The notes under the pieces were generated by a model. It searched no databases and had not been told where the DNA came from. It worked only from the letters and a program-made list of their open reading frames with translations. Both the position numbers and the translations under genes were made by a program. From the NCBI GenBank assembly GCA_963921275.4, contig OZ001293.3, positions 768,001-832,000 of the forward strand: a stretch of 64,000 nt of DNA. The letters run 5' to 3'. Positions 14,242 through 60,288 of this stretch are shown here, one piece after another (the stretch's first letter is position 1; every line of letters starts with the position of its first letter). This DNA comes from an uncultured Hormoscilla sp. Lineage in GTDB: Bacteria > Cyanobacteriota > Cyanobacteriia > Cyanobacteriales > Desertifilaceae.

Positions 14242-15282
14242 TACATTTTTGCCTACATGAGAGATAACGACTCCCACCGTCCCAGGGGGGATTTCCGTTA
14301 ACGGCACTTCTTCAACTTGAACGAACCAAGGGTTAAGACTCCAAGAACCTTCTTGCAGAAATTCTTCCTGCAAACCTCGGTAGCCCCCTGCATCAATGAA
14401 CTTTTGCCCATTTTGGAATGTGTAGTGTCCTTGGATGAACGGACCAGCTATCTCATTTTCTGGAAGAGGCATGCCGTAGAGAGTAGTTACGATCCCGATC
14501 ATATTTCTCCCTACCGTATATACCTTCATATCTTCAGGCTTTATCCCATATTCGGTAGCACGGGCCGCTGTTACAATCGTAAACAATGCCGTATTAATTT
14601 GGTATTCACCAGCCCTCAAAATAGCCAATTGTTCCCCACGCTGTCCTCCATTGGTAATGAATGCTCGTGCGTCTTGGAAGTTATTGCATTCAACAACCTT
14701 ACCAAGAATTCGTTCATCTGGTAGCGGGGCACCATCGTGGGCGATTACTAGAGCAATTTCTCTTGGCGGAACCTTGACCGTGGGTACTCTGCGAACCTTG
14801 AACAATGCAGTATTTATTTGGTAAGTTCCAGCTTTAAGGATAGCTAGTTGCTGACCTCTCTGCCCCCCATTCTTAATAAATGCTTCTGCATCCTGGAAGT
14901 CATTGCACTCAACAACTTTACCAAAGTTTTGACCCGGAGGTAGGGCAGCACCATTTTTCGCCTCGACTATGCCAACTTCACTTGCTTCAATCTGGATGAC
15001 GTTATTTTCTGTTATACTCTCAGGCGGAACCTTGACCGTGGGTACTCTGCGAACCTCGAACAATGCAGTATTTATTTGGTAAGTTCCAGCTTTAAGGATA
15101 GCTAGTTGCTGACCTCTCTGCCCCCCATTCTTAATAAATGCTTCTGCATCCTGGAAGTCATTGCACTCAACAACTTTACCAAAGTTTTGACCCGGAGGTA
15201 GGGCAGCACCATCTTTCGCCTCGACTATGCCAACTTCACTTGCTTCAATCCGGATGACGTTATTTTCTGTTATACTCTCAGG
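14236..15282 (-). pseudogene. C-terminal module of the conflict effector: flotillin/SPFH-associated beta repeats, interrupted by IS982
   Basis: Repeats VECNDFQDAEAFIKNGGQRGQQ..GTYQINTALF; frame continues past the IS to a stop at 13146; no own start codon. Confidence 0.7.
14765..15282. repeat. Near-identical in-frame 258-bp tandem duplication
   Basis: Units start at 14765 and 15023 (GGCGGAACCTTGACCG). Confidence 0.9.
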
Positions 15283-15603
15283 AGGTTTGAGGAAATTGGT
15301 TCAGTTGATTGAGTGTTTTGGTTCGGATCTTTTGAACCTGTCTGCTTAATCTGAAGCTTTGCCAGGATCTCAAAGGCGAAGGCACTGGCATGAGCGGAAG
15401 ATTTTTCCTGTCGATCCCGTTCCGATTCTAAAAAATCGTCATTTTTGCCCTCAATTAAGTCGGAAATACCTCTAATCACGATAGCCTTAATATTGGGGTA
15501 GGCAAAGGCGGCGCTCAGGAAACCAAAACCTTCCATCTCAACCGCGATCGCGTCGTTATAACTTTCTCTCAGAAATTTGAAAATCTTTGACTGTTTGGAG
15601 GCA
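15270..15603 (-). pseudogene. Nucleoside phosphorylase (PNP_UDP/MTAN-like) domain, 3' part
   Basis: AIAVEMEGFGF..VIRGISD motif; joins the 5' part in frame when the intron is removed. Confidence 0.85.
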
Positions 15604-16530
15604 GTGCGATTCGTTCCGGCATAAGCCAGTAGGTGAAAGTCGGGTCTGGCTCTATCAGCCAGATAACTCTGGTTATCATGGGGGTTAAATTCCCTTTCCC
15701 CAGGTACGGGGGTCGAGGGTACTACCGGTCGGAGGTGCTACGGAGCCACATCGCCGTGGTGCCTCCCGAGGACTTAAATGTAGGATAACTGGCAGCCTAA
15801 GCCGGTGACGCCGCTAGGAAAGATGCTAATGGTTAGAACAAGCGAACCTATGTAAACCTCGTTAACCAGAACCAGCGGAAGAAGGCTTATGCGCTTGCCC
15901 AAAAAGGGAAATGGTAGTTAGTATTAGCTCTTGCCTCTGGCTAATAACGTACTCAAAGAACTCTCGGGGTATAGTAGGAACCTAAAAGCATCGCGAAATG
16001 ATACCAGGGAACGGAGTAACCTCTCGTGAGCTGTCCCCATTTGGACAAGTTAGATGTAAAGCGCAAGCCACGAAGAGGAAGGATGTCCTAAGAAGCCAAC
16101 GCCCGGGGTAATGCTTGTGGATATGCAGACGTAGGACGGATATGGTAAGACACCCTTGGGAAAAGTAACCTTAATGTCACAGAACTAGGAAGAAATTCCA
16201 AAAGTACGAATCTTGGATTCAAATCTTAGCCAGGTAAAGTTCAGAGCCCCTACGAAAAGCGGAAAGCAGAATGGGGAAGATGTTAGTAAAGAGCGGCGAG
16301 TATGGTTTGCTGAACTATCCTCCGCGAACCTTCCGCAGCTCAGTACTTAAACGGTCCAATAGGATTGACCATAAGGGGTAAAATTTCAAAGGGTAAGGGA
16401 CAACGGGGGTAACCCCCAGTAATCCTACTGATGACAACAGCTTACCAACCAGTAGCCGTGTGCGGTTCCAGTCGCTCTTCAGGTTTCGCTCTTGGAGGGT
16501 TGGGGAGTGATTCCCAGCTCGACCCCGACC
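15604..16530 (+). mobile_element. ORF-less group II intron, antisense to the host gene
   Basis: 5' GTGCGATTCGTT; degenerate domain V/VI (AGTAGCCG...GGAGGGTTGGG..CCCAGCTCGACCCCGACC); removal restores GEKVIASKQ. Confidence 0.88.
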
Positions 16531-21490: not shown

Positions 21491-23440
21491 TTAAGATCCT
21501 GAAAGATTATACTGCTCCAGCAATTGCTGGGAAACCTCCAAAGCATCCTGGTAATCTCTAACTAAATTTCGAAGTTCTTGCTCGGTCCCCACGCTGAGAC
21601 AATCCTGCAAATCAGGGGGGAATTCTTCCATCTCAAAAGCTTCGTTCGTCCTTTGCGGTCCCAACTTGGCATCTACTTCAACTTGAGTCTTACCAATAAT
21701 TTCTTTTATTTCTGGTAATAAGAACCCCCGTTGCTTGCGAGCTAATACCCGAACCTGAGTCAAAGTATAACGCCAGTCAATTGCCAGCTTGCGACGCTCT
21801 TGCTCGTTAGCAAGTTCGGCATCCAGGATTTGTTCTTTAACAGCTTCCAAGAGTTCCCACCAGGGCTCATCGCGAGCAATTTCCGGTCCCCGTCGCTTTA
21901 ATGCTAATACTTGAATGATAGCATAAGAAAAATCCGCAAGCGAACTCCCACTAATATCAGTTAGCTGTCCGTTTGCGTCTATTTTCAGTGAAGTCGGCAA
22001 AATTTCATCCCTGTGGGAGCCAACTACAACCCGGTAGCCCGCTTTCAAATCTTGGAGGTTGAGATCCATCGTGGAGGAGAAAATCTCATCTTGAGAGCCT
22101 TCACGCAGTAGAAAACTCACCAATTGCCCGACAATTTTACTCACTCTCAGAGCCACAGCCCAATCAGGTCGAAGTAGCGATACTTGAGCGACTAAACCAG
22201 TTTGTTCGAGTTGAGTCATTGGATGGGGTCGAGCCGGGAATCGCTTCCCGACCCTCCCTTGAGGAACCGGACTTGCGATTTTCACCGCATCCGGCTACTG
22301 GGTACTAGGCCCTTTTCATAGGTAGACTTAATAGGAATTACTTCCGTTAGCCCTTGCCGCCTGTCTTTTCTTCCCTTTCCTGGTTTAGCGAGTGGTTGTT
22401 CTGATAACCGTTAGTATCACCATTTTCAAGTCAGTTTTACCAGTTATCCATACCTTATCCTCCACTTGCGTTTCGGATTAGTTCCGTGGCTTTTTAGGAT
22501 TACTCATTCCAGCAGCTTCCTAGTATCACCGACCCACGTCAGCGCTGGCTACCCAGCATCATCTACATTACTGTAGATGTTATCCCAGGAATTACCCCGG
22601 GCATTCGCTTCTTGGGTCATCCCTCCCCCCGTGGCTTGCGCTTAACATCTAACTTGTCCTGATGGACAGCACACGAGAGGTTACTTCGTTCCCTAACAAC
22701 ATTTCGCGATACCTTTAGGTCCACACTATACCCCGGGAGCTATTTGAGTACTATATTAGCCAGAGTCTAAAACTAATACTAGCTACCATTTCCTTTTTAG
22801 GCCAGCGCATATAGCCTTATTTCGCTGGTTCCTTATAACGAGGCTTGCACATGTTTGCCTGCTCTAACCTTGGATATCTTTCCTAGCGGCGTCACCGGCT
22901 TAGGCTGCCAGTTATCCTACATTTGAGTCCTCGCTTAGCACCACGATGATGTCGCTTCGTAGCACCGAGGACCGGTGTCACCCCCGTACCTGGGGGGAGG
23001 GGAATTTAACCCCATGCGGTCAGAGTTCCCGGCTAATGAAACCGGGCTAGCGTTCCGTGTTTGACCACGTTAGGCTAGAACGAATCGCACAAATTCTGTA
23101 AAGGTTTATCTTGCCATACTATATATTTCAAGTTGACACGCAACCAGTCAGTAGAGCGGGCAGGCAACTAGTCAGTTAAATTGATACTGAGACCCAAGCG
23201 ACAAGCCTTATTTTTTTGCACGGAGGAGATCTTGTGGAGGCTTTGGGTCGAGTAATTTGGCTGAAAAGAGCTTTCGACTGAAGAACTAAAAGTGATAAAT
23301 CCAGGTTCAGTCAGCAAACCAGCTCTGTAGAATGCTTGGGCATCGTGCAGCCTAACTAGAAAGTAGCTGTTGTTTAAATATAGGTTGCACGGGGGGTTAG
23401 GTTGCTCTGGATAGTAAATAGAACTGACACTACTTAGCAT
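21491..23440 (-). pseudogene. Hypothetical protein in the conflict operon, split by a sense-oriented group II intron, with a premature stop
   Basis: Exons join in frame (KPLQNL-MTQLEQ); in-frame TAG at 23168. Confidence 0.7.
22221..23090 (-). mobile_element. ORF-less group II intron (lineage B, copy 1)
   Basis: GTGCG 5' end at 23090; intact DV AGTAGCCGGATGCGGTGAAAATCGCAAGTCCGGTTC; near-identical to 56934-57804 and 57805-58675. Confidence 0.92.
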
Positions 23441-25614: not shown

Positions 25615-26827
25615 GGCGTTGGATGGCTTGGAGCCATTTGACTTCTTCGCTCAGACCTTGGGGTTTGGGGGATGGACGCTGAGACTGCTGCTTTGAATCC
25701 ATTCGTAAATTTGTCAAACCTCCTACTATTCTAATGCTGTCCTTTTCTAGCAGGGGCGTATGTTTAACAAAAAATTACACGGTTGAGACTGATAAATACT
25801 CACCTCCCTCCACAACAATGCACGCCGGTCATAGTTAATGCCAAACTTAAGGGAAAGCTTTTCCGAATTTAGACAGAATTAATCACTTTAATGTTATGGA
25901 TTTATTTTACCCTAGTGTAAACCCGACCCAGAGCCTCTAGTATAATATCATTACCAGGCGGGTGTGCTCAAAACCCGTTGATCGTTCATGGGCCCTCCAG
26001 TCGTCGGATCCCCCCTGCGATGTCTCGCGAAGGCCGCGCCACATGCGCTGCGCGCACCGGGCTACTAGTCAGGAGCGATCGCACTACCCAAGAGACATCG
26101 CACCCCCCTTAAAAGATACTGTGGGCGAATTACCAGATCATGCGCTCAGAGCTCCCTGCTCCGCCTCGAAATGTTAAGAAATATGTGAGTAAGGCATAGA
26201 ATTGGCGTGGGGGGGTTTGGGGGGGATCCCTATGCAACAACTGCGCCTTCCACACCCCTTTTAACCCCAAGAGCGTCTAAACCCAGCCGCAGTAGGGCTA
26301 AAGGAGGGCGAGAGTCCCAATTGATCGCCAGCATAGTCTTACATTTTGGATGTGAGAGTAACCTCGGAGGTCAATACTTCGTAGGTTTTGGATATAGGTT
26401 GTCCGGAGCGAGGGGGGGGACAACCGCTCACAACTTATGCTCAATTGAGTTAACCCCCCCGTTCGCGCAGGCGTAGCCGTGGCGAAGCAGCAGCTAGCAA
26501 TCTCCCGGCTCGGGTGCTCCCGGCTCCCTGCTATCCCTTGAGGTATTGCCTCGGAGGTTACTTTTTTTTCAGTGCCAGCAAGCAGCACTAATAGGGCCAT
26601 TACGGACAAAGAAAAAAGAGCGTCCCAAAGTAGCCATCAACCTTGAAACCTATCGCCGGTCATAAAGCGAGCGGATTCTCAGAACAGACTGGCACCGAAG
26701 CTCAGGTCATCAATCACCGGCTGTACCCAAAAAAGATTGCCTCATCCAAAAATCAACCCCAAAAAAATCCCCAAGCCGCGTAACTCCCCCCAACTCCACC
26801 ACCCCATTTCAAGTCCCCACTAAGACC

Positions 26828-26973: not shown

Positions 26974-27801
26974 ATTAGGGGTCTCCCTGGGAATAGCTTC
27001 GGAACCCTCCCGTTCGGAACCGGACTTGTGATTTTCACCACATCCGGCTACTGGGTAGTAGGGCCTTGTCATTGGTAGAATTACTAGGGATTACTCCCGT
27101 TGTTCCTTGTCTCATGCTATTTCACTCATCTACTGGTTTCTAGCCAGCCATCCATTCCTCATCATTATTGCTAATGAAGGGCTCATAACGTTTTTAGAGC
27201 TACTTTTACCCGAGACATCCTGCTATCACCGACCGACGTCTGCATATCCTAAGCATTCCCCGGCGTCTTCCGCATGCTCTTGTCCTGAAGGACTCGGCAT
27301 GCGGAAGACACCGCCTAGGCATTAGCTTCTTAGGCCATCTTTCCCACCTGCGGCATACGCTTCACATCTGACTGGTCCTTTCGGACAGCTCGCAAGGGGT
27401 TACTTCGTTCCCTGGTCTCCGGAGCGCGATACCTTTAGGTTCCTACTCTACCCCGGTAGCTTTTCGAGTACGATGTTAGTTACGAGCGACAACTAACACT
27501 AGCTACGTTGACTTTTGTCTCCGGTGTATACAGCCTTATTTCACCGGTTCTACATAACGAGGCTTACATAAGTTCGTTTATTCTAACCTTGGGTATCTAA
27601 CAAGCGCGGTGTCACCAGCTATGGCTGCCAGCTATCCTACATTTAAGTCCTCGCTGAGCACCAATGGTGATGTTACTCCACAGCACCTCACGCGGTTACC
27701 CCCGTACTTGGGGAGAGGGAATTTAACCCCATGAATACCAGAGTTCCTAGTTTCCTAGGCTAGCGTTCCGTATTACTACGTTAGGCTAGAACGAATCGCA
27801 A
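26974..27801 (-). mobile_element. ORF-less group II intron (lineage C)
   Basis: 5' TTGCGATTCGTT; DV AGTAGCCGGATGTGGTGAAAATCACAAGTCCGGTTC; 3' end GACCCCTAAT. Confidence 0.85.
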
Positions 27802-28172
27802 CGCTCACTTGTAGTTGATAGCCGGGTGCATCTTAGATGCATGTAAAATAGCCCGCCGGTAGGCTCACGCTCACCCGACCACGCAGGCGGTCGGGTGAGC
27901 GTGGTCGGGTGAGCGTATACGAAGTGCGCGTAGCGCTAGCCGAAGGGAGCCGAAGGGAGCCTACCGGCGGGCAATGTTGCGGAGTAGCCGGACCATGCAC
28001 GGGTGAGGGCTGTGTTTCCCCTTTTGTGCGTAAGGCGCGAGGTTTCTCCTATGCATGTGCGATTACGATGTCCCCCCAGAGGGGGGTGCGGTTAGCGCGA
28101 GGTATCTCCACCGGTTGTGCGATTAGCGCTCCCAGGAGATACCTCCCCCCAGAGGGGGGACATCGAGCTCCC

Positions 28173-29911
28173 CGGGTAGTCTTTAAGTTGCAAAAGCGAA
28201 TTTACAGAGCGGCAATGGAAGGCGTAATAAGCGAACGGTTCGCAGACTCCAAAGATTACTGGTAAAATCCCGGGCAGCCAAAAGTCTAGCGGTACGACAG
28301 GTTACACAAGACAACCAGGGAAGGAAAACTGCCGGTGTGGATGGTGTTAAAGCACTGACCCCAAAGCAGCGCTTAGAACTGGTAGGACAGATTGAAATCT
28401 CAAACAAGGCCAAGCCTACACGTCGTGTATGGATACCCAAGCCAGGGAGAGAGGAAAAACGTCCTTTAGGAATACCAACGATGTACGACCGTGCGACACA
28501 AGGACTCCTCAAGACTGCGCTAGAACCCGAATGGGAAGCGTACATGGAAGGGAACTCCTACGGGTTCAGACCGGGAAGGGGATGCCACGATGCAATCGAG
28601 GCAATATACAGTAGCATCAAACAAAAACCCAAGTGGGTACTGGATGCAGACATTGCAAAATGCTTCGATAAGATAAACCACAAGGCGCTACTAGAAAAAC
28701 TGAATACAATATCACCAATCCGTAAGCAAATACGGGCATGGTTAAAAGCCGGGGTGATGGACAAAGGGGAATGGCATGCAACTGAAGCGGGAACGCCCCA
28801 AGGGGGTGTCATATCACCGCTACTAGCCAACATAGCCTTACATGGGTTAGAGGAGGCAGTAATGAAGCTCGCCAAGCCAACAAAGAACGAAAGAAAAAAG
28901 CTGACAGTAGTCAGATATGCAGATGACTTTGTAGTCATGCACGAGAACAGAGTGATAGTGGAAAAAGCGCAGATAGTGGTCGCAGAGTGGCTAAAAGGAA
29001 TCGGGTTAGAACTGAAAGCCGAAAAAACAAAAATAGCTCATACGCTAAAGGGGGAAAACCCGGGGTTTGACTTTCTGGGTTTCAACATCAGGCAATATGA
29101 GGTGAGTAAATACAGGACCGGCAAGTCAACACACGGAACACCCCTAGGATTCAAAACCCTAATAAAACCCAGTAATAAGTCCATAGGGAAGCATAAAGAA
29201 CGGTTATCAGAAATGGTGGCCAGCCATAAAGCAGCACCACAAACAGCCTTGATAAGTGGGGTAAACCCGATAATACGGGGATGGTCAAACTACTACAGGG
29301 CGGTGGTGAGTAAGGAAACTTACAGCTACATGGACCACTACCTATGGACCATTCTCTGGCAGTGGGCAAAAAGGAGACATCCCAATAAATCCAGTCATTG
29401 GATAGCTCGTAAGTACTGGTCCCTAAGTGAGGACGGTAAATGGCGATTCCGATGCAAGATAGGAAAAGATGAGATAACGCTGCGCAAACACTCCGAAACT
29501 GAGATAATCAGGCACGTAAAAGTGAAAGGTACAGCCAGCCCATATGACGGGAACCTTACATATTGGAGCGCAAGACTAGGTAAAAGCCCCGAGTTGAGTA
29601 AGAGGGTAGCAACGCTACTCAAGAGACAAAAGGGGAAATGCCAACACTGTGGACTAACGTTTATGAACTGTGACAAATGGGAAGTTGACCATATCAAGCC
29701 CCTCTCATTAGTCTCATTAGGGGGTAAGGACCGGTACGACAACCTACAGTTACTACACAAGCATTGCCACGATATAAAGACTGCCAACGATGGTAGCAAA
29801 CGTAGCCGTACCTATGACAAGGGTGGCGTTGCTGAGGAGCCGGATGATGCGAAAGTATCAAGTCCGGTTCTGAAGACTAGCAGGAGTGGTGACACTCTTG
29901 CTTAGTTTAAT
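28173..29911 (+). mobile_element. 5'-truncated RT-encoding group II intron (chloroplast-like class)
   Basis: DV GAGCCGGATGATGCGAAAGTATCAAGTCCGGTTC; end GCTTAGTTTAAT; 5' domains missing relative to the 55942 copy. Confidence 0.88.
28337..29905 (+). CDS. ltrA: Group II intron reverse transcriptase/maturase with HNH endonuclease (N-terminus frameshifted)
   Basis: RPLGIP, GTPQGG, YADD, IRGWSNYY and HNH (EVDHI..LHKHCH) motifs. Confidence 0.9.
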   Translation: MDGVKALTPKQRLELVGQIEISNKAKPTRRVWIPKPGREEKRPLGIPTMYDRATQGLLKTALEPEWEAYMEGNSYGFRPGRGCHDAIEAIYSSIKQKPKWVLDADIAKCFDKINHKALLEKLNTISPIRKQIRAWLKAGVMDKGEWHATEAGTPQGGVISPLLANIALHGLEEAVMKLAKPTKNERKKLTVVRYADDFVVMHENRVIVEKAQIVVAEWLKGIGLELKAEKTKIAHTLKGENPGFDFLGFNIRQYEVSKYRTGKSTHGTPLGFKTLIKPSNKSIGKHKERLSEMVASHKAAPQTALISGVNPIIRGWSNYYRAVVSKETYSYMDHYLWTILWQWAKRRHPNKSSHWIARKYWSLSEDGKWRFRCKIGKDEITLRKHSETEIIRHVKVKGTASPYDGNLTYWSARLGKSPELSKRVATLLKRQKGKCQHCGLTFMNCDKWEVDHIKPLSLVSLGGKDRYDNLQLLHKHCHDIKTANDGSKRSRTYDKGGVAEEPDDAKVSSPVLKTSRSGDTLA

Positions 29912-31890
29912 TCCGACCCACCTAATGAAAGTGGTTTAATATGGTCAACTTCCCACTTGTCACTATTTGTGAACGTTAGTCCTAATTCTCGGCAGTTACC
30001 TTTCTGCATCTTCATGCGCTTCGCAACTCGTGTTCCCACATCTGGGCTCTTACCGAGTCTTGTACTCCAGTAAACGAGCTCACCGTTATATGGGCTTACA
30101 TCACCTTTTACTTTGACATGTCTTACTATCTCTACACTACTGTGCTTCAACAGCTCAACTTCCTTACTTTCATCTTTCGATCTGAACAGCCATTGACCAT
30201 CCTTGTCTATTGACCAGTCATTCTTGGCCATCCATTCTCCAGACTTATTCGGGTGTCGTCTTTTCGCCCATCTCCACAAAACCTTCCACAAGTAATCGTC
30301 CAGATCACTATACGTTTCCTTGCTCACTCCTGTTCTGAAGTAATTAGCCCATCCACGTATCAGAGGATTCAGCTTCATTATCAGCTCCTCCTGAGACTTT
30401 CTGTCATCTATCTCTTTCTGATGACTTTCCTTGTGCTAAAGAACGGATTTCTCACTCAGCTTGATTAGTGTTTTGAATCCTAGGATCTTCCCTTTACACC
30501 TTCCAGACTTGTTCTTGACTACCTGATATTGTCTCACATTGAATCCCAGGAAATCAAATCCCGCGTCTTCTGCGTGTAACCTATGAGCAATCCTAGTCTT
30601 CTCAGGCTTAAGTTCAAGTCCTATTCCTCTCAGCCATTCAGCTATAACCTTCTGCGCCTTCTCCACCACTTCCCGACTTTTATGTATGACTACAAAGTCA
30701 TGTATCTGACCACAGTCAACTCTGTCTTTTTTCGTTCAGGCACCAGAGTCATAACTTTTTCCTCTAGTCCATGCAGAGCAACGTTTGCCAGCAATGGTGA
30801 AATCACTCCTCCTTGTGGTGTACCTTCATTCGTTGCACACCAATTCCTCCCATCTATCACACCAGCAGTCAGCCAAGCGCGTATTTGTCTACGAAAGATA
30901 GATGAAGTATTCACTTTTGTCAACAGCGCTTCATGGCCTATCTTATCGAAGCATTTAGCTATGTCAGCATCAAGAACCCATTTAGCTTTCTTGTTGATCG
31001 CTGAGCATATTGCTTCGATTGCATCATGACATCCTCGACCTGACCTAAATCCATAGGAATTACCTTCTTTCCTTAGCTTCCCATTCTGGTTCTAATGCCT
31101 GTTTCAGTAATCCCTGTAGTGCGCGGTCGTACATCACCGGTATTCCCAATGGACGTAACTCTTTCCTACCTGGTTTAGGTATCCAAACCCTTCGAGTCGG
31201 CTTAACCTTCTTCCAAGTCTTAAGTTGTCCTACCAGTTCGAGACGCTCGTTAGGTTTCAGCTCTTTTATACCGTCTACCCCAGCCGTCTTCTTTCCCTGG
31301 TTATCTTGTGTTACTCGTCGTACCGCTAGACAGTTGGCAGACCAAGACTTCACTAATAGCCTCTGGAGTTTGCGAACTTTCCGCTTATTACCTTCCTGAG
31401 TCGCTCTGTAAATCCGCTTTTGCAAAAGACTAACCGCTCCAATTTTGGCCACGGTAGATCTTTCCATTCATACATCGGCTTTCCCGTGTTCATAACGTTT
31501 TCACTGCTACAAGTAGCTTCACATTTGACATCATTGTGAGGGCGTCAGCGTATCCATACCTATTACAGGTAGGCTTTTGCTTCTCCACGAAATCCTTCCC
31601 GGCTATGACCTGGCATATGTAACCAGATGTTGCGTCTTTGGTGACTACCAGATGTGATCGACCTCTAGATCTGGAGTACATAACCGGTTTACTTCGTTCC
31701 TACAGATGATTGATCATGACCTTAGATGGATTCTATGTACCGGGTTTATTGTCGGTGCTTGTTAGTCGGCCTACGATCCACTAACGACCTCTATCCTTTC
31801 CCTTTTGGGCCAGTGTTTCAGCCTTATTACACTGGTTGTGTGTGACGACACTGCAAATCTTCGCTTCATGCTCACCATAGTCACTTGCTC
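29912..31890 (-). mobile_element. Degenerate RT-encoding group II intron, truncated at both ends
   Basis: RT fragments at 31060-31467, 30690-30923, 30436-30669 and 29902-30378; 31500-31890 matches domain I of the 55942 intron. Confidence 0.85.
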
Positions 31891-32828
31891 GAATGTATCC
31901 ATGAGTCCTATAACTTGCTGCGAACCTTGCCCCTAGATGACTTCGATGTGGTGTTTATCTTTCACTGCTTCCATCAGTTTCCCTCGGAAGTCCGACGGAT
32001 CCTGCTAGACCGGGGCGCGCGCCAGATCAAGATTGTGGGCTACACCATGGGCAGTCACTGGGACCCCACGGATACCTTCCGCGAGATTTTCTATCCGGGT
32101 ATGCGGGTGAGTGACCTGGCCAACTTGCTTTGTCTCGACCTGGTATTGATGGTTTCACATTATTTCCGAGAGGTGTTGCTCCATCATGTGGGTGCCTTCA
32201 GTACGACAGCAGCAGCGGAACTCGATCGCCGCATCGCCGTCACGGGTTTGCCCATTAACAACGAATTGATGGACCGCGGCTGCACTAGCAGCAAAGCAGA
32301 CAAGGTGCAGATTGTCTTCAACCATTCTCCTACACCAGGGAAGCCCCCGAAATTTTCTTCCGCATCATGGAGCAGATATTACCTCACCACGACGTGAGGT
32401 TAGTTGTTACCCGTCAGTTTGACGCTGATAGTCCTGGTCAGGAGCAATTGCAGCAACTGCAAGCACGCTATGGCGATCAGGTAATCATCGGGAATACCAT
32501 GTCTTTAGCAGATTACTATGAAACCCTGTGGAAATCCCACATCCAGGTCTCGACAGCCGAGCACGAATCCTTCGGCATATCGACCTTAGAGGCAATGTAC
32601 ACTCGCAATGCCTGTATCCTGCCCAGTCGCCATAGTTACCCGGAAATCACCGACAATACCAACCTCTATACATCCGAACAAGAACGGCTAGAGATGCTGA
32701 CGCACTACATTCAGGACCAACTCTCATGCAGTCAAATGGCCGAAGTCATGCATCAGCAGAGCTGGCGGTACGTTCCCGAGCAGGTCGTAGAACGCATTTC
32801 CCAGGCGATCCACGACCTACTCTCCTAA
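31891..32828 (+). pseudogene. Glycosyltransferase (GT4-like) remnant
   Basis: HESFGISTLEAM motif; frameshift near 32350; 5' end missing. Confidence 0.75.
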
Positions 32829-33194: not shown

Positions 33195-33355
33195 GGAGAG
33201 TGTGAAGTTCTCACAGAATACGACCTCGTCTAAAAGCTGAAACCCTTGCTGGGGGTAGCTTACAGCCAGTATTAGCCCGCTTATTGCCCATGATCGGTCG
33301 ATCGGACCAAAACCCGCTTATGACAAGCCGTTATCCAAAGAACTTCGCACTGTCC
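33195..33355. mobile_element. 161-bp MITE
   Basis: TIR GGAGAGTGTGAAGTTCT / GGACAGTGCGAAGTTCT; no clean TSD. Confidence 0.6.
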
Positions 33356-33363
33356 AGATAGAT

Positions 33364-34274
33364 TGAAAGTCTGGTTTGGTTTCATTTGCTAGACAACTCT
33401 GGTTATCATGGGGGTTAAATTCCCTCTCCCCAGGTGTGGGGGGTCGAGAATACTACCGGTCCTTAGTGCTGCGGAGTCACATCGCCGTGGTGCTCCGCTA
33501 GGACTTAAATGTAGGGTAGCTGGCAGCCTAAGCTGGCAACACCGCGCTTGTTAGATGTTCATGGTTAGAACAAGCGAACCTGTGTAAGCCTCGTCACCTA
33601 TAACCAGCGGAATAAGGCTGATACGCTGGCCCAAAAGGGAAATGGTAGTTAGTGTTGGTAATCTGTACTTACTAGCATCGCACTCGAAGAACTCCCGGGG
33701 TATAGCAGGAACCTAAAAGCATCGAGAAATGATACCAGGGAACGAAGTAACCTCTTGTGTGCAGTTCGGCTCAACGGGGCCGAACCAGTTAGATATACGT
33801 CCGCGTAGCGTGCGCGGAGCGCATAGCGCAAGCCACGAGGGGAAGGATGTCCTAAGAAGCAAATGCCCGGGGTAATGCCCGTGGATAAGCTGACGTCGGA
33901 CGGATATGGTAAGAAGCCTTTGGTGAAAGTAGCCCTAATATGTCGCAAAACTTAGGAGAAATCCAAAAGTATGAATATGGACTAGAGTCTCAGCCGGGTA
34001 AAGTTCAGAGCCCCGATAAATCAGGAATGGGGAAATGTTAGTAAAGAGCGGTTAGACCGGTTTGCTGAACTACCCTCCGCGAACCTTCCGGAGCTGAAAT
34101 CATTAACGGTCCAATAGGATTGACCATAAGGGGTAAAATTACAGAGGGTAAGGGGAAACGGGGTGACCTAATTATTGATGATGATATGCCTAAGGACAAG
34201 CCCCAGCGGTGAAAGTCGCAAGTCCGGTTTCGCTCTTGGAGGGTTGGGAAGTGATTCCCAGCTCGACCCCGACC
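33364..34274 (+). mobile_element. ORF-less group II intron (lineage D), 5' end lost and DV damaged
   Basis: Colinear with 15604-16530; same 3' end CCCAGCTCGACCCCGACC. Confidence 0.82.
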
Positions 34275-49734: not shown

Positions 49735-52578
49735 ATGAGAACTAATTCATCAGTACCTCAGGAGAATACCGTCGAAGGAGACAGCGTTACCTTTTCAGAC
49801 ATTGCCAGTTTAGCTGGGATCGACTATCGTCGCATCCCCTCAGCACGAAACGAAATTTTCGATGAAATCAAACTAGGGCCTCCGTTGACGCCAGAAGATC
49901 GGGCCGAAGTACCGCTATTCGCGAGGGGCTTGCCCGGGGTGGCGATTCTGGATTACGACGGGGATGGGGATCTGGACATCTACGTCATAAACGGACCTGG
50001 GGCTGCCAACAGTCTCTACTCCAATCAATTAGAGGAAACGGGTCAGTTAACCTTTGTCGATATGGGGGAGGCGGCAGGAGTCGCAGCGACTGACCAAGAC
50101 AGCACTGGCGTTTCCTATGGTGACATCGATAACGACGGCGACCACGACCTGCTAGTTCTGGGTGCGGGGGAAGCAAATCGACTGTTTGAAAACCTGGGAG
50201 ATGGCACGTTTGTTGATATTACCGAAGCGAGTGAGATTGGTGAGGATAACCGGTACTCCGGTTCGGCCTCTATGGGAGATGTCAACGGGGATGGCTGGCT
50301 GGATATTGTCGTTGCTAATTCTTTCAACTGGGACAACACTTTTGCCATCGCCTTAGAACCCTTTGCCTTGAACGAGCATAACCAGCTATTCCTGAATACA
50401 GGGAACAATACTTTTATAGATGTCAGCGCTACCTCTGGAATAGAAAACCTGACTGGCTTTGGCGAAGATGTACGAGATGGAATGGCTACCATTACTTGGG
50501 CGATCGCCATAGTAGACTACGATCTAGATGGAGACCTGGATATCATCCATGGAGACGACCAAGGGGTTGTTCCAACTGGAGAATTCGGTGGGGTTGATCG
50601 CGGCTTGATCCATGTTCTCCAAAACGACGGTACTGGGAACTTTACCGATGTAACGGCGTCCGCCAACCTGAATGTCCCTGGTGCATGGATGGGTCTCTCC
50701 TTCGCAGACTTTAATGCCGATGGGAATATGGATATCTTTGGCTCCAATTTCGGCGAGTATGGGTTGTTAAGAGATGGCTTAACCCTGCGCTCGGGAAATT
50801 CCCGGTGGTTTTTGGGACAGGACGACGACACCTTCACAGATCCAGGTGTAGGGCCCCTAGTAGCTACAACCTTTGGCTGGGGGAATGGGACGACAGATTA
50901 CGACAACGACGGCGACACGGATATTATCTTTCAAGGTGGTTTAGATGTCGGTCCGTTTGTTGACGCTTCCAATCCAGGCACGCTCCTGAGAAACGATGGT
51001 GCTGGCAATTTTACCTACGACGCCGACGCCTTGGCATCAGCCACCGACCACCTGCGACGCAGCAATAAGGGACTGGCCCTTGGAGATCTAAATCAGGATG
51101 GTTTTGTCGATATCGTTTCGACGTCGAATTTTGACTACCCAGAATCCGTACCCCTCGTCCCTTATCCTGACGAATTTGGTTCACCGTTCGATTCCATAGC
51201 GGCGACTGTGCCCACTTTTATGACTACGGAGAATGGAGAATTTGCCTGAAGTGGATTAGTATTCCCCGATGGCACCCTGTCTGTGGAAATCAATAGTGCC
51301 GATAACGGCAATGGTTGGGTAGAAGTGCAAACCCTGGGTACGGTGGGCCTGACTGGGGAGGGAATTGTCAATCGGGATGGCATTGGCGCGGTGGTCTTCT
51401 TTACTCCCGAAGGGGGCCAGACGGCCATGGAACCGATTCTGGGTGGGTCAAGCTTTATCTCCCAGAATAGTCTAGCTGCTAACTTTGGCCTAGGTTCAGA
51501 AACCCGAGGGACTGTGGAAGTGCTGTGGCCAGGTGGGGTGCGTAACCGACTCTACAATGTTGAGGCGGGAGAAAAGATCTATTTCCCAGAAATTCCAGTC
51601 AGTTTTGATGACAATGACAAAAGCCTGCGAGAGTACGTCATGGAGGTCAGGGATGCTTTGGATCAGTTGGTGGCTTCTGAAGTTTTGACCCCTAGCGATC
51701 GGAGTCGATTCTTGTTCAGCGCTATCAAGGCTTTTCAGGAGGATAATGGCAACAGCCGATTGGACGTCAATGGTTGGGTAGAAGTGCAAACCCTGGGTAC
51801 GGTGGGCCTGACTGGGGAGGGAATTGTCAATCGGGATGGCATTGGCGCGGTGGTCTTCTTTACTCCCGAAGGGGGCCAGACGGCCATGGAACCGATTCTG
51901 GGTGGGTCAAGCTTTATCTCCCAGAATAGTCTAGCTGCTAACTTTGGCCTAGGTTCGGAAACCCGAGGGACTGTGGAAGTGCTGTGGCCAGGTGGGGTGA
52001 GTAACCGACTCTACAATGTTGAGGCGGGAGAAAAGATCTATTTCCCAGAAATTCCAGTCAGTTTTGATGACAATGACAAAAGCCTGCGAGAGTACGTCAT
52101 GGAGGTCAGGAATGCCTTGGAGCAGTTGGTGGCTTCTGAAGTTTTGACCCCTAGCGATCGGAGTCGATTCTTGTTCAGCGCGATCTCTGGTTTTCAGGAG
52201 GATAATGGCAACAGCCAATTGGACGTCCAGATAGGGAGTAGCGGCCGAGACGTTCTGACTGGTGGTGGTGTCCGCCGCGCTTTCCTTTATGGGGGTGATG
52301 GGGACGACTTGCTTAATGGTAATGCTGCTAGTCGCGCTCATCTTGATGGAGGTAATGGTCGCGATACCTTTGTCATCCTACCGGGAAGGGGTCAAGCTAT
52401 TATCCACTTTTTTGAAGATGGGATGGACAGCCTGGGTCTAGTTGGCTTGAGTTTCAGCGAACTAGAAATTGTCCCGCGCGGTAGTGCGACGACTATTAAC
52501 ATGGCGTCTACAGGAGTTACTCTCGCTACTCTGTTGGGTATTGATTCTACATTGATTAGCGAGGCTGACTTTTCTTAG
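49735..52578 (+). pseudogene. CRTAC1-like FG-GAP / ASPIC-UnbV protein with RTX tail, split by one in-frame stop
   Basis: DxDGDGDLD repeats, two ASPIC/UnbV copies, GGxGxD tail; TGA at 51247 in frame with the 51283 ORF. Confidence 0.85.
51309..52227. repeat. 459-bp in-frame tandem duplication
   Basis: CAATGGTTGGGTAGAAG at 51309 and 51768; units near-identical. Confidence 0.9.
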
Positions 52579-55796: not shown

Positions 55797-56933
55797 GTAG
55801 TTTGGGAGAGATTTCTGGGCAATATCTAATATAACAGTAAAGGAACTCTCATTACAAATAGCGGCATGAAACCGGAATTGGAGCGGATTGAGGCTACATT
55901 GGCTCAAATTATAGCAGAGCAAAACAATAATGTAAAAAGGGGTGCGATTCGTTTAGTGTAAACCACCGGCGATAAGCCGACGGGGGACCACTAGCAGGGT
56001 TTCATTAGCCCTGATAACTTTTAGATGATGGTGGTGAAAGCCCACCCCTCCAGGTGCAGGAGTGAAAGCGTAACCCCTACGGTAGCGATGGCATCAATCC
56101 GTAAAGCGGGGTTAAAAGGCGCAGTAACTGGTAGCCCTTACCGGTCATCGCCAAGCAAGTAGTCATGGTGAGCGAAAGCAAAGACTCATAAGTGTCGTTA
56201 CACTAAACCAGTGAAAAGGCTGAGAAGCTGGCCCAAAAGGGAAAGGATAATGGTCATTGGCGGTTCCTTTCCCGACCAATAAGCACTGACAATAAACCCG
56301 GCATAAAGAGCCCATCTAAAACTACGACCAATCATTTAGAGGAGCGAAGTAAACCAGATACACACCCTTAACTACCGGTCGATAGGTTGAGTAGCCACCA
56401 CAGGCGCAACATCTGCTCTCATCAGGCAGGTTGTATCTGGGAAAGATTTCGCGGAGAAGCTAACGCCCGTCTGTAATGGATGGGATATGCTGACGCCCTC
56501 ACGGTAACGTCAATTGTGAAGTTGTAAGTAGCAATGCATACGTCATGAGCACGATATCAGAATCGATGAATGAATGGAAGGATATCCCCTGGCCTCGGCT
56601 GGAGCGGGTAGTCTTTAAGTTGCAAAAGCGAATTTACAGAGCGGCAATGGAAGGCGTAATAAGCGACCAGTTCGCAGACTCCAAAGGTTACTGGTAAAAT
56701 CCCGGGCTGCCAAAAGTCTAGCGGTACGACAGGTAACACAAGATAACCAGGGAAAGAAAACGGCGGGAGTGGACGGTGTTAAAGCACTGACCCCGAAGCA
56801 ACGCTTAGAACTGGTAGGACAAATTGAAATCTCAAACAAGGCCAGGCCAACACGTAGAGTATCGATTCCCAAGCCAGGGAGAGAGGAAAAGCGTCCTTTA
56901 GGAATACCAACGATGAACGACCGCGCGACACAA

Positions 56934-57804
56934 GGATGGGGTCGAGCCGGGAATCGCTTCCCGACCCTCCCTTGAGGAACCGGACTTGCGATTTTCACCG
57001 CATCCGGCTACTGGGTACTAGGCCCTTTTCATAGGTAGACTTAATAGGAATTACTTCCGTTAGCCCTTGCCGCCTGTCTTTTCTTCCCTTTCCTGGTTTA
57101 GCGAGTGGTTGTTCTGATAACCGTTAGTATCACCATTTTCAAGTCAGTTTTACCAGTTATCCATACCTTATCCTCCACTTGCGTTTCGGATTAGTTCCGT
57201 GGCTTTTTAGGATTACTCATTCCAGCAGCTTCCTAGTATCACCGACCCACGTCAGCGCTGGCTACCCAGCATCATCTACATTACTGTAGATGTTATCCCA
57301 GGAATTACCCCGGGCATTCGCTTCTTGGGCCATCCCTCCCCCCGTGGCTTGCGCTTAACATCTAACTTGTCCTGATGGACAGCACACGAGAGGTTACTTC
57401 GTTCCCTAACAACATTTCGCGATACCTTTAGGTCCACACTATACCCCGGGAGCTATTTGAGTACTATATTAGCCAGAGTCTAAAACTAATACTAGCTACC
57501 ATTTCCTTTTTAGGCCAGCGCATATAGCCTTATTTCGCTGGTTCCTTATAACGAGGCTTGCACATGTTTGCCTGCTCTAACCTTGGATATCTTTCCTAGC
57601 GGCGTCACCGGCTTAGGCTGCCAGTTATCCTACATTTGAGTCCTCGCTTAGCACCACGATGATGTCGCTTCGTAGCACCGAGGACCGGTGTCACCCCCGT
57701 ACCTGGGGGGAGGGGAATTTAACCCCCATGCGGTCAGAGTTCCTGGCTAATGAAACCGGGCTAGCGTTCCGTGTTTGACCACGTTAGGCTAGAACGAATC
57801 GCAC
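56934..57804 (-). mobile_element. ORF-less group II intron (lineage B, copy 2)
   Basis: 871 bp, near-identical to 22221-23090. Confidence 0.92.
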
Positions 57805-58675
57805 GGATGGGGTCGAGCCGGGAATCGCTTCCCGACCCTCCCTTGAGGAACCGGACTTGCGATTTTCACCGCATCCGGCTACTGGGTACTAGGCCCTTTT
57901 CATAGGTAGACTTAATAGGAATTACTTCCGTTAGCCCTTGCCGCCTGTCTTTTCTTCCCTTTCCTGGTTTAGCGAGTGGTTGTTCTGATAACCGTTAGTA
58001 TCACCATTTTCAAGTCAGTTTTACCAGTTATCCATACCTTATCCTCCACTTGCGTTTCGGATTAGTTCCGTGGCTTTTTAGGATTACTCATTCCAGCAGC
58101 TTCCTAGTATCACCGACCCACGTCAGCGCTGGCTACCCAGCATCATCTACATTACTGTAGATGTTATCCCAGGAATTACCCCGGGCATTCGCTTCTTGGG
58201 CCATCCCTCCCCCCGTGGCTTGCGCTTAACATCTAACTTGTCCTGATGGACAGCACACGAGAGGTTACTTCGTTCCCTAACAACATTTCGCGATACCTTT
58301 AGGTCCACACTATACCCCGGGAGCTATTTGAGTACTATATTAGCCAGAGTCTAAAACTAATACTAGCTACCATTTCCTTTTTAGGCCAGCGCATATAGCC
58401 TTATTTCGCTGGTTCCTTATAACGAGGCTTGCACATGTTTGCCTGCTCTAACCTTGGATATCTTTCCTAGCGGCGTCACCGGCTTAGGCTGCCAGTTATC
58501 CTACATTTGAGTCCTCGCTTAGCACCACGATGATGTCGCTTCGTAGCACCGAGGACCGGTGTCACCCCCGTACCTGGGGGGAGGGGAATTTAACCCCCAT
58601 GCGGTCAGAGTTCCCGGCTAATGAAACCGGGCTAGCGTTCCGTGTTTGACCACGTTAGGCTAGAACGAATCGCAC
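57805..58675 (-). mobile_element. ORF-less group II intron (lineage B, copy 3), tandem with copy 2
   Basis: 871 bp, abuts copy 2 with no spacer. Confidence 0.92.
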
Positions 58676-59876
58676 GGACTCCTCAAGATTACGCTCGAAC
58701 CTGAATGGGAGGCGTATATGAAAGGGAACTCCTACGGGTTCAGACCGGGTAGGGGATGTCACGATGCAATCCAGGCAATATTTGATAGCATCAGATATAA
58801 ACCCAAGTGGGTAATGGATGCTGATATTGCAAAATGCTTCGATAAGATTGACCACAAAGCGCTAATGAAAAAATTAAATACAACGTCACCAATCCGTAAG
58901 CAAATACGGGCATGGTTAAAAGCCGGGGTGATGGACAAAGGAGAATGGCATGCAACCGAAGCGGGAACTCCCCAAGGGGGAGTCATATCACCACTACTAG
59001 CCAACATAGCCTTACATGGGTTAGAGGAGGCAGTAAAGGAACTCGCCAGGACACAAAGGGAAAAGCAAAAGCTGACGGTAATCAGGTATGTTGATGACTT
59101 TGTGATAATACATGAAGATAGGGAGATAATAGACAGAGCGCAGACAGTGGTGGCAAAGTGGCTAAAGGGAATGGGGCTAGAGTTGAAAGCCGAAAAGACA
59201 AAAATAACTCATACGCTAAAGGGAGAAAAACCGGGATTTGATTTCCTGGGGTTCAACATAAGGCAATATGAGACGGGTAAATACAGAGCCAACAAATCAC
59301 CCCAAGGAATACCCCTAGGGTTCAAAACCCTAATCAAACCCAGTAATAAGTCCGTAGGTAAGCATAAAGAACGGTTATCAGAAATGGTCGCCAGCCATAA
59401 AGCAACACCACAGACAGCCTTGATAAGTAGGCTAAACCCGATAATACGGGGATGGTCAAACTATTACAGAACTGTGGTGAGTAAGGAAACTTACAGCGAC
59501 ATGGATAACTACCTATGGAACATCCTATGGCAATGGGCCAAAAGGAGACATCCCAAAAAGTCAAGTCACTGGATAGCCCGTAAGTACTGGTCTAAAGACC
59601 AGGGTGGTAAATGGCGATTCCGATGCAAGACAGGAGAGGGAGAGATAACGCTGTGCAAACATACTGAGATAATCAGACAAGTAAAAGTAAAAGGCACAGC
59701 AAGCCCATACGATGGGAACCTTACATATTGGAGTACGAGATTAGGCAAAAGCCCCGAACTGAGCAAGAGAGTGGCAACAGTATTGAAGAGGCAAAAGGGA
59801 AAATGTCAATACTGCGGATTAACGTTTATGGACAGTGACAAATGAGAAGTTGACCAGATCAAGCTTCTTTCATTAG

Positions 59877-60088
59877 CTTACCATTACTCGCATAATTCTT
59901 TACAATCTTAAAACCCTTATGGTACAAAGATTCTGAGACTTAGCATCCTCAACGGGGTTGACAAAAATCCCGACCTCTTTCTTGATAAATTATTTAATTT
60001 ATTGAGAATGACTTAGGAAGTAATCAGGGTTTCACCCCCCATAGTGGCCACAGAGAGAAATGTTAAGAAATATGTGAGTAAAGCATAG
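59877..60088. mobile_element. 212-bp MITE in the intron HNH region
   Basis: 9-bp TSD TTTCATTAG; imperfect TIR CTTACCATTACTCGCATA / CTATGCTTTACTCACATA. Confidence 0.85.
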
Positions 60089-60288
60089 TTTCATTAGGGG
60101 GTAAGGACCGGTATGACAACCTACAGTTGCTGCACAAGCATTGCCACGATATAAAGACTGCCAGCGATGGCAGCAAAAACAGCCGTACCCATGACAAAGG
60201 TGGCGTTACTGAGGAGCCGGATGACGCGAAAGTGTCAAGTCCGGTTCTGAAGACGAGTCGAGGTGGTGACACCCTGGCTTAGTTTAAT

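Follow-up and report, generated by a model that had tools for sequence, protein, structure and literature searches.

A head-to-tail doublet of an ORF-less group II intron in a Hormoscilla reverse transcriptase pseudogene, and its probable origin by tandem re-homing

How does a mobile intron come to lie twice in succession, the last base of one copy abutting the first base of the next? The question is raised by a stretch of 64,000 nucleotides (nt) of contig OZ001293.3 (positions 768,001 to 832,000 of the forward strand, assembly GCA_963921275.4) from an uncultured Hormoscilla sp. We call this whole stretch the window and count positions from its first letter. On its minus strand, 58675..56934 is made up of two 871-nt units, head to tail and spacer-free, of a group II intron that lacks an open reading frame (ORF) for a protein of its own. 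The pair lies antisense within the reverse transcriptase (RT) gene of another group II intron, H1. The arrangement had been pointed out in a first-pass annotation made from the letters of the window and a list of its ORFs. Here we ask whether it is as described, what it interrupted, how it probably arose and whether it recurs.

Are these two complete copies, exactly joined? A repeat search of the window returned three copies, starting at 22221, 56934 and 57805, the last two being 871 apart. On the minus strand the inner junction reads ...CCCCATCC/GTGCGATTCG (a slash marks a junction throughout), with zero bases between. Measured against the empty site in the paralogous intron H2, the insert is exactly 2 x 871 nt. 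The upstream copy, unit A, and the downstream copy, unit B, differ at one of the 871 positions, intron position 61, where A has G (58615) and B has A (57744); this is the difference that the first-pass annotation had seen at 57744, and it is the sole one. The A61 of unit B converts a C–G pair of a stem in domain 1 (D1) to C·A. The stem covaries: CCGG with CCGG in the window intron is replaced by CUGG with CCAG in I15, an ORF-less relative elsewhere in the window, and in a lineage of 903 nt (alignment inspected by eye). The third copy, copy C, found where the annotation had placed it (23090..22221), departs from unit A at two places, having lost 1 nt of a G run and bearing one G>A; at position 61 it carries G as A does. 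All three copies thus lie within two changes of unit A and are at least 99.8% identical. The 12-nt junction word has two exact occurrences and one with a single mismatch, against 0.14 expected. An 871-nt tandem of 99.9% identity lies far outside what chance would give, and the doublet is confirmed as real, as read in the assembly sequence. A 400-nt query spanning its junction gave zero matches in a plasmid collection.

What kind of intron is it? The units begin GTGCGATTCG, with the GTGCG 5′ end (GUGYG type) at 58675 and 57804 on the minus strand and again in copy C. Domains 5 and 6 (D5 and D6) of 3/3 copies match the Rfam model RF00029 at 44.4 bits, the gathering threshold being 40, and the AGC triad is present in the alignment, as is an unpaired A in D6. 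The longest ORF within an 871-nt unit encodes 53 amino acids (aa), and an RT ORF is absent from it. By these marks the units are recognizable as ORF-less group II introns, in agreement with the earlier description, and the intron presumably depends on a trans-acting RT. The Rfam models for D1–D4, run against the 871-nt intron, gave RF01999 as the best match, at a sub-threshold 22 bits (gathering 36, E 0.09). The hallmarks of class IIB2, according to the accessible text of PMC4649490, are the 5′ consensus GUGCGAUUC, a second exon-binding site (EBS2) without a stem and the presence of a third (EBS3). The window intron appears to be IIB2-like, its start GTGCGATTCG fitting this consensus and its EBS2 being stem-less.

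Where, exactly, does the intron end? The mobile unit ends ...CAUCC, and the last AU aligned by RF00029 sits 2 nt inside; the usual AY is therefore not found at the 3′ terminus. An end at ...CCCCAT, as the RF00029 alignment would have it, was rejected. The ends of copy C (TTT/GTGCG...CCCCATCC/AATG) fix the boundaries of the unit, and the empty H2 site agrees with them. In addition, a degenerate 3′-end pattern scan of public genome contigs gave at least 20 loci, and among the matches listed ...CCCC(R)(W)CC is kept at 20/20 distinct 3′ ends, all four bases occurring next. Since copy C, the empty H2 site and these 20 relatives all place the end 2 nt later, the terminal CC is part of the intron. 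Because the ORF-less family thus ends 2 nt past AY, the unpaired A of D6 lies 9 nt from the 3′ end, not 7–8. H1 and H2, too, agree for 4 nt (TCCG) past their AAT and only then diverge.

If the doublet sits in a gene, was that gene alive when the intron arrived? H1 lies on the plus strand and carries Pfam RVT_1 and GIIM at 58718-59845. The doublet, on the minus strand, breaks its RT frame ...MNDRATQ/GLLKITLEPEWEA between 56933 and 58676, in RT motif 2, and so splits the gene at CACAA/GGACTCC, as first described. Without the 1742 nt, 56634-59845 is an open frame of 490 codons, with 0 stops inside it; when one unit is left in, a stop follows 14 codons past the junction. The start of the RT ORF (56545-56697) is in a different frame from the rest. 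H1 and H2 have a common frameshift after ...LQKRIYRAA-EG (56545-56700 and 28173-28270), whereas a third RT intron of the window, H3, reads through unshifted. The shared frameshift implies that both pseudogenes come from an already broken ancestor, and the H1 RT was already dead before the doublet arrived. In its HNH region H1 has, besides, a 212-nt insert (described below) and a premature stop. Moreover, H1 and H2 differ by about 7–13%, as against the identity of at least 99.8% among the ORF-less copies, so the doublet is much younger than the frameshift. The paralog near 28500 had been called intact. Its target site is indeed uninterrupted (CACAA/GGACTCC at 28497-28508), but H2 itself is 5′-truncated at 28173 and shares the frameshift of H1. 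Being antisense to H1, the doublet is not removable by splicing from H1 transcripts. It has no function for the host.

By what contacts would the intron recognize such a site? We aligned the window's 871-nt intron with I15 and with lineages of 887, 897, 903 and 971 nt from Hormoscilla metagenome-assembled genomes (MAGs), pairwise 58–88% identical. Loci L001, L002, L006, L007, L012, L014 and L020, at which the 5′ end was not placed, were excluded when the EBS sites were analysed. Of the two identical units of L019 the second was dropped, as was L010, the flanks of which duplicate those of L003; these two loci, on two contigs of the GUM202 MAG, hold the 897-nt intron with identical flanks, and their target is probably itself repeated. 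The EBS1 loop, AGACUCU in the doublet, covaries with the 5′ exon across lineages. At the doublet, the intron-binding site IBS1 pairs at 6/7 positions (5 Watson–Crick, 1 GU and 1 mismatch, C·A at −1), and the best IBS2 window pairs at 5/6 (3 Watson–Crick and 2 GU). In I15, EBS1 (UGCCUCU) pairs with GGAGGCA at 7/7, and in the 903-nt intron GGUCUGU pairs with GCAGACC, again at 7/7, at a doublet site described below; UUUCCU of the 887-nt intron pairs with AGGAAA. A rival candidate for EBS1, GGACUC at about position 165, was rejected, this stretch being conserved among lineages with differing exons. EBS2 covaries with exon positions of about −13 to −8 in five lineages (AUAAGG, AACCAG, AUCAUC, AUAUAU and AUGUAU), so that both loops vary with the exons in these lineages.

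For the third contact, the accessible part of PMC8643678 places the EBS3 of IIB introns within subdomain ID, in a conserved internal loop; the internal loop of D1 that holds U364 fits this. In our alignment the column of U364 is the sole one of 1052 that gives a Watson–Crick pair with the first 3′-exon base at 12/12 usable sites. It has U in four lineages, in which the exon starts with A, and G in two non-sister lineages, in which the exon starts with C. U364 is thus a plausible, though not a proven, EBS3. At the site of copy C, IBS1 pairs at 6/7 and the A at IBS3 would pair with this U.

If the RT site is imperfect when empty, how good a target does it become once occupied? At the empty site IBS1 pairs at 6/7 (C·A at −1), the best IBS2 window at 5/6, and IBS3 is a U·U mismatch. 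At the upstream junction of the occupied site, between the 5′ exon and the first G (G1) of the resident, IBS1 and IBS2 are unchanged at 6/7 and 5/6, and IBS3 becomes a U·G wobble. At the downstream junction, between the intron 3′ end and the 3′ exon, the intron end offers a pseudo-IBS1 that pairs at 2/7, IBS2 is poor and IBS3 is again U·U. With the EBS3 partner changed from U to G, the occupied site, read at its upstream junction, is a target no worse than the empty one and, if anything, better.

We conclude that the doublet probably arose by a second copy re-homing to the junction of the 5′ exon and a resident copy. A trans-acting RT from elsewhere would mobilize the ORF-less intron, and a first copy would retrotranspose to an ectopic, imperfect site lying antisense in the H1 pseudogene. 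A second ribonucleoprotein of the same intron would then reverse-splice at the same phosphodiester, now between the 5′ exon and the resident's first G. The 5′ exon would keep IBS1 and IBS2, while the EBS3 partner would shift from a mismatched U to a wobbling G. The product would be 5′ exon/new copy (A)/resident copy (B)/3′ exon, with an exact 3′-end/GUGCG junction. What is found in the window is just such an exact 3′-end/G1 junction, and the first unit is preceded by the native 5′ exon. Unit A would accordingly be the newer copy and unit B the older resident; that the sole difference lies in B, where it breaks a covarying pair, and that A matches copy C there, is consistent with B being older. 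In this process intron sequence takes the place of the 3′ exon. The intron-encoded proteins (IEPs) of Thermosynechococcus elongatus recognize no base in the 3′ exon, as the accessible text of PMC2882425 has it, and the replacement would be tolerable if the window RT behaves like them. Of the two origins offered by the first-pass annotation, re-homing to an already occupied 5′-exon junction with IBS retained thus fits the EBS/IBS pairing, and it fits the experiments discussed below.

Does the arrangement recur in nature? It had been suggested that other ATCC/GTGCG junctions be sought. Among the matches listed, 1/20 distinct 3′ ends runs straight into GTGCG. The search thus yielded one further junction of this kind, in another intron, but did not recover the window's own ATCC-type intron, of which there is no copy among the loci listed (at least 20). 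Eighteen of the 20 lie in two Hormoscilla MAGs, one in Prochloron and one, L012, in a MAG that bears the label Gammaproteobacteria. L012 could reflect horizontal transfer or contamination in binning; the other listed matches are cyanobacterial.

The second doublet is on contig RFFC02000032.1 of Hormoscilla sp. GUM202. Two 903-nt units lie head to tail with 0 differences between them, the inner junction reading ...CCCCGACC/GTGCGG; IBS1 pairs at 7/7 and the putative EBS3 is again U. In both doublet-forming introns, then, EBS3 could pair with G, a statement that depends on the weak assignment of EBS3. The 903-nt intron is about 62% identical to the window intron and belongs to a different lineage. 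Single copies occur at four further sites at least (L005, L008, L013 and L015); among the five 903-nt sites listed, IBS1 is best at that of the doublet, where mismatches are absent and wobbles next to the splice site are fewest. We read this doublet as an independent natural recurrence of the window arrangement.

How could a gene bear such an insertion? The GUM202 doublet lies in sense within a gene of the dienelactone-hydrolase family (Pfam DLH, E 3e-11), positions 123-186 of the 217 of the DLH profile being covered before the intron. With both units removed, the frame continues for 34 codons; with one or both kept, a stop is met inside the intron. Expression of the gene would therefore need both units removed. 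They could leave sequentially, removal of the upstream unit recreating a single-intron precursor, or together by way of the outer splice sites.

Is such behaviour known from experiment? For EcKTE56.groEL, an IIB1 intron studied in Escherichia coli, the accessible text of PMC12584367 (Mob DNA 2025) gives tandem copies in 22.4% of delta-ORF integrants as against 4.2% of full-length ones. The newcomer had entered upstream of the first copy, directly after the 5′ exon, an outcome ascribed there to a wobble between EBS3 (U) and G1. As in that system, the copies in the window meet exactly at 3′ end/GTGCG and EBS3 appears to be U; the window intron, like the delta-ORF form, is ORF-less, and naturally so. 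EcKTE56.groEL was over-expressed in the laboratory and homed to its native site, the groEL stop codon. The window doublet, on the other hand, is natural, occupies an imperfect ectopic antisense site in an RT pseudogene, and is built from an IIB2-like intron with its 3′ end 2 nt past AY. In retargeted RmInt1, tandem insertions were likewise explained by G1 pairing with EBS3, to judge from the available text of PMC4075523 (RNA Biol 2014). In that case EBS3 was an engineered C, giving a Watson–Crick pair with G, the IEP was without an endonuclease domain, and the targets were on a plasmid and in lacZ.

TeI3 of T. elongatus also comprises near-identical ORF-less cyanobacterial introns inserted in the RT ORF of ORF-containing introns, and it is mobilized in trans, as the available text of PMC2882425 relates. 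TeI3 in TeI4 lies in sense, between the first two ATGs, and is spliceable, forming true twintrons; the window insertion, in contrast, is antisense, a doublet, and in RT motif 2 of a pseudogene. With the doublet on the minus strand and its host H1 on the plus strand, it is not a twintron. The Trichodesmium twintron in the available text of PMC4649490 shares the IIB2 hallmarks of the window intron (5′ consensus, stem-less EBS2 and, putatively, EBS3), but it is a sense intron-in-intron, spliced sequentially, and not a head-to-tail pair. The word ‘tandem’ is absent from PMC4649490, in the text accessible, and from the main text of PMC2882425. Our searches of open-access main texts turned up no account of a head-to-tail group II doublet in a natural genome; supplements and subscription journals lay outside this coverage, so that one may exist.

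What else could set two introns end to end? The last bases of the 5′ exon are the same as the last bases of the intron over 3 nt in the window (GTCC and ATCC, sharing TCC) and over 4 nt in GUM202 (AGACC and CGACC, sharing GACC). At least three identical terminal bases are seen at 2/2 doublets as against 1/12 single sites among the matches listed (one-sided Fisher p=0.033, post hoc). As the C at −1 in the window mismatches EBS1, pairing strength is no explanation for the identity there. The identity would suit a single event in which an RT copies the intron RNA together with 3–4 nt of 5′ exon and, by way of this microhomology, switches to another intron RNA at its 3′ end. End-to-end template switching is efficient in group II RTs, and if they worked in this manner here, concatemers would be a natural by-product of group II retromobility. 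A variant, the copying of a circular or dimeric intron RNA, was the other origin proposed in the first-pass annotation; it has gained no positive support and calls for extra, unproven steps. Intron circles are without the free 3′-OH required for reverse splicing. Either form requires a precise rejoining of the cDNA with the 5′ exon, and the two outer junctions are exact; neither inner junction has extra bases. For the 903-nt intron the shared bases simply equal the ideal IBS1, and the single site L008 shows the identity too. Integrated products of this kind were not found in searches of the open-access literature, and we consider such concatenation unlikely. The same identity would serve a tandem duplication of one resident intron at the level of DNA, through slippage or unequal exchange between the flanking TCC...TCC repeats, precise intron loss being the reciprocal product. 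But repeats of 3–4 nt are everywhere, which gives no reason to pick the pair that coincides with the intron ends, and the same choice would be needed twice, in two lineages and two genomes. We rate this below even a fault of assembly, to which we now turn.

Repeats are error-prone in assemblies, and an assembler might have expanded one real copy, the single-base difference being a consensus error. Identical tandems, however, are usually collapsed and not expanded, A and B do differ at one base, a second doublet of another intron appears in an independent public assembly, and experiments yield the same arrangement; an artefact is therefore quite unlikely. The least probable account is that the second copy re-homed at the downstream junction, between the resident's 3′ end and the 3′ exon, using the intron end as a pseudo-IBS1. 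This would account for the identity of exon and intron ends, and in the 903-nt intron the pseudo-IBS1, CCCGACC, pairs at 5/7, including the 4 positions nearest the junction, with the canonical A at IBS3. The window's downstream junction, with its 2/7, poor pseudo-IBS2 and U·U, speaks against it, and in the published experiments, as far as the accessible text of PMC12584367 goes, the second copy lies upstream.

Re-homing to the upstream junction nevertheless has points against it as well. It neither predicts nor needs the identity of exon and intron ends, with its contrast between doublets and single sites. The near-identical H2 site is empty, which implies that the RT site is not an efficient target. 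The control for EBS3 is weak: two of the six lineages can be labelled ‘C’ in 15 ways, and 4/15 labelings, the true one included, give at least one fitting column. A single difference is unable to order the insertions of A and B. The window holds no intact RT gene, H1, H2 and H3 all being broken or truncated. The tally of at least 20 loci from the pattern scan is a lower bound, and the evidence for the doublet is the assembled sequence.

What, then, does the locus add? The doublet exemplifies in nature a behaviour already known; it reveals no new mechanism and leaves the understanding of group II introns unchanged. Tandem re-homing has so far been shown mainly in laboratory or engineered systems, where it is attributed to EBS3 pairing with the G1 of a resident. 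The two independent natural doublets, the first within a dead RT gene, the second in sense in a protein-coding gene, would be traces of it in real genomes, and the EBS3 rule appears to hold in nature, the putative EBS3 being U in 2/2 doublets. Since occupation improves the pairing of the ectopic site at IBS3, imperfect sites may be able to seed small arrays. An intron 3′ end followed directly by GUGCG offers a simple diagnostic for a census of such events. The interest of the finding is moderate and lies in this field evidence and in the second case, in a coding gene.

Table 1. Positions in the window of the doublet, its recognition elements, the single copy C, the host intron and its paralog. 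Putative elements are marked as such.
Feature	Position	Strand	Remark
Unit A, upstream copy, 871 nt (GTGCG...CCCCATCC)	57805..58675	-	RF00029 match at 57807-57883, 44.4 bits
Unit B, downstream copy, 871 nt	56934..57804	-	RF00029 match at 56936-57012, 44.4 bits
Sole A/B difference, intron position 61	57744	-	A in unit B; G in unit A (58615) and copy C
D5 and D6 of unit A	57809..57880	-	D5 57849-57880, D6 57809-57842 (Rfam alignment)
D5 and D6 of unit B		-	D5 56978-57009, D6 56938-56971 (Rfam alignment)
5′ exon, -1 to -13	58676..58688	-	IBS1 GGAGTCC and IBS2 TCTTG (pair table)
EBS1 loop AGACUCU, intron 324-330	A: 58346..58352; B: 57475-57481	-	Covaries with 5′ exon across lineages
EBS2 AUAAGG	A: 58415..58420; B: 57544-57549	-	Unpaired; adjoins a helix in the alifold consensus
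EBS3, putative, U364	A: 58312; B: 57441	-	2-nt unpaired stretch, D1 internal loop (alifold consensus)
Copy C, single copy of the doublet's intron, 870 nt	22221..23090	-	1 nt upstream of the ATG of ORF 21491-22219
Host intron H1, with broken RT ORF	55942..60288	+	5′ GTGCGATTCG at 55942; D5-D6 at 60212-60288
H1 RT ORF, piece upstream of doublet, ending ...IPTMNDRATQ	56634..56933	+	73% identity with the N-terminal RT region of H3 over 92 aa
H1 RT ORF, piece downstream of doublet (GLLKITLEPEWEA...)	58676..59845	+	Premature stop inside HNH region
MITE-like insert, 212 nt	59877..60088	+	Splits HNH domain of H1 RT; absent from H2
Paralog H2, 5′-truncated at 28173	28173..29911	+	87-90% identical to H1
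Empty paralogous target in H2, GTCTTGAGGAGTCC/TTGTG	28497..28515	-	13/14 bases of 5′-exon motif identical

The host intron has suffered a further insertion, of an element resembling a miniature inverted-repeat transposable element (MITE; table 1). This is flanked by 9-nt direct repeats, TTTCATTAG, at 59868-59876 and 60089-60097, and has 21-nt inverted repeats that are 86% complementary. H2, which is without the element, has TCTCATTAG twice in tandem at the matching place, perhaps a footprint left by excision. One end of the element is matched over 32 nt at 26168-26199. Among solved structures, 6me0_C (E 4.7e-90), which we take to be TeI4h of T. elongatus, stands nearest to the window's RT.

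H2 and H3 belong to a nest of intron remnants at 26974-32100, together with I27, a degenerate ORF-less intron on the minus strand with the 5′ end GTTGCG, and low-complexity repeats at 27850-28170. H3 (29922-31889, minus strand) lies some 10 nt beyond H2 and is 69% identical to H1; its ORF is cut where H3 meets the H2 side and is broken into at least two pieces. Two ORF-less relatives lie on the plus strand. I15 (15603-16530) looks intact and has perfect EBS1–IBS1 pairing, and in I33 (about 33333-34274) unrelated sequence stands in place of roughly the first 40 nt. Just upstream of I15 two exact 258-nt copies stand in tandem at 14765-15280, and a 459-nt repeat, 99% identical, is found at 51305-52063 inside an ORF with a UnbV_ASPIC domain.

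Copy C, finally, ends 1 nt before an ATG (22217-22221) and so separates the start codon of ORF 21491-22219 from whatever is upstream. This ORF encodes 242 aa, with no match in Pfam; downstream of it, on the same strand, are genes with bDLD1 (bacterial death-like) and iSTAND domains.

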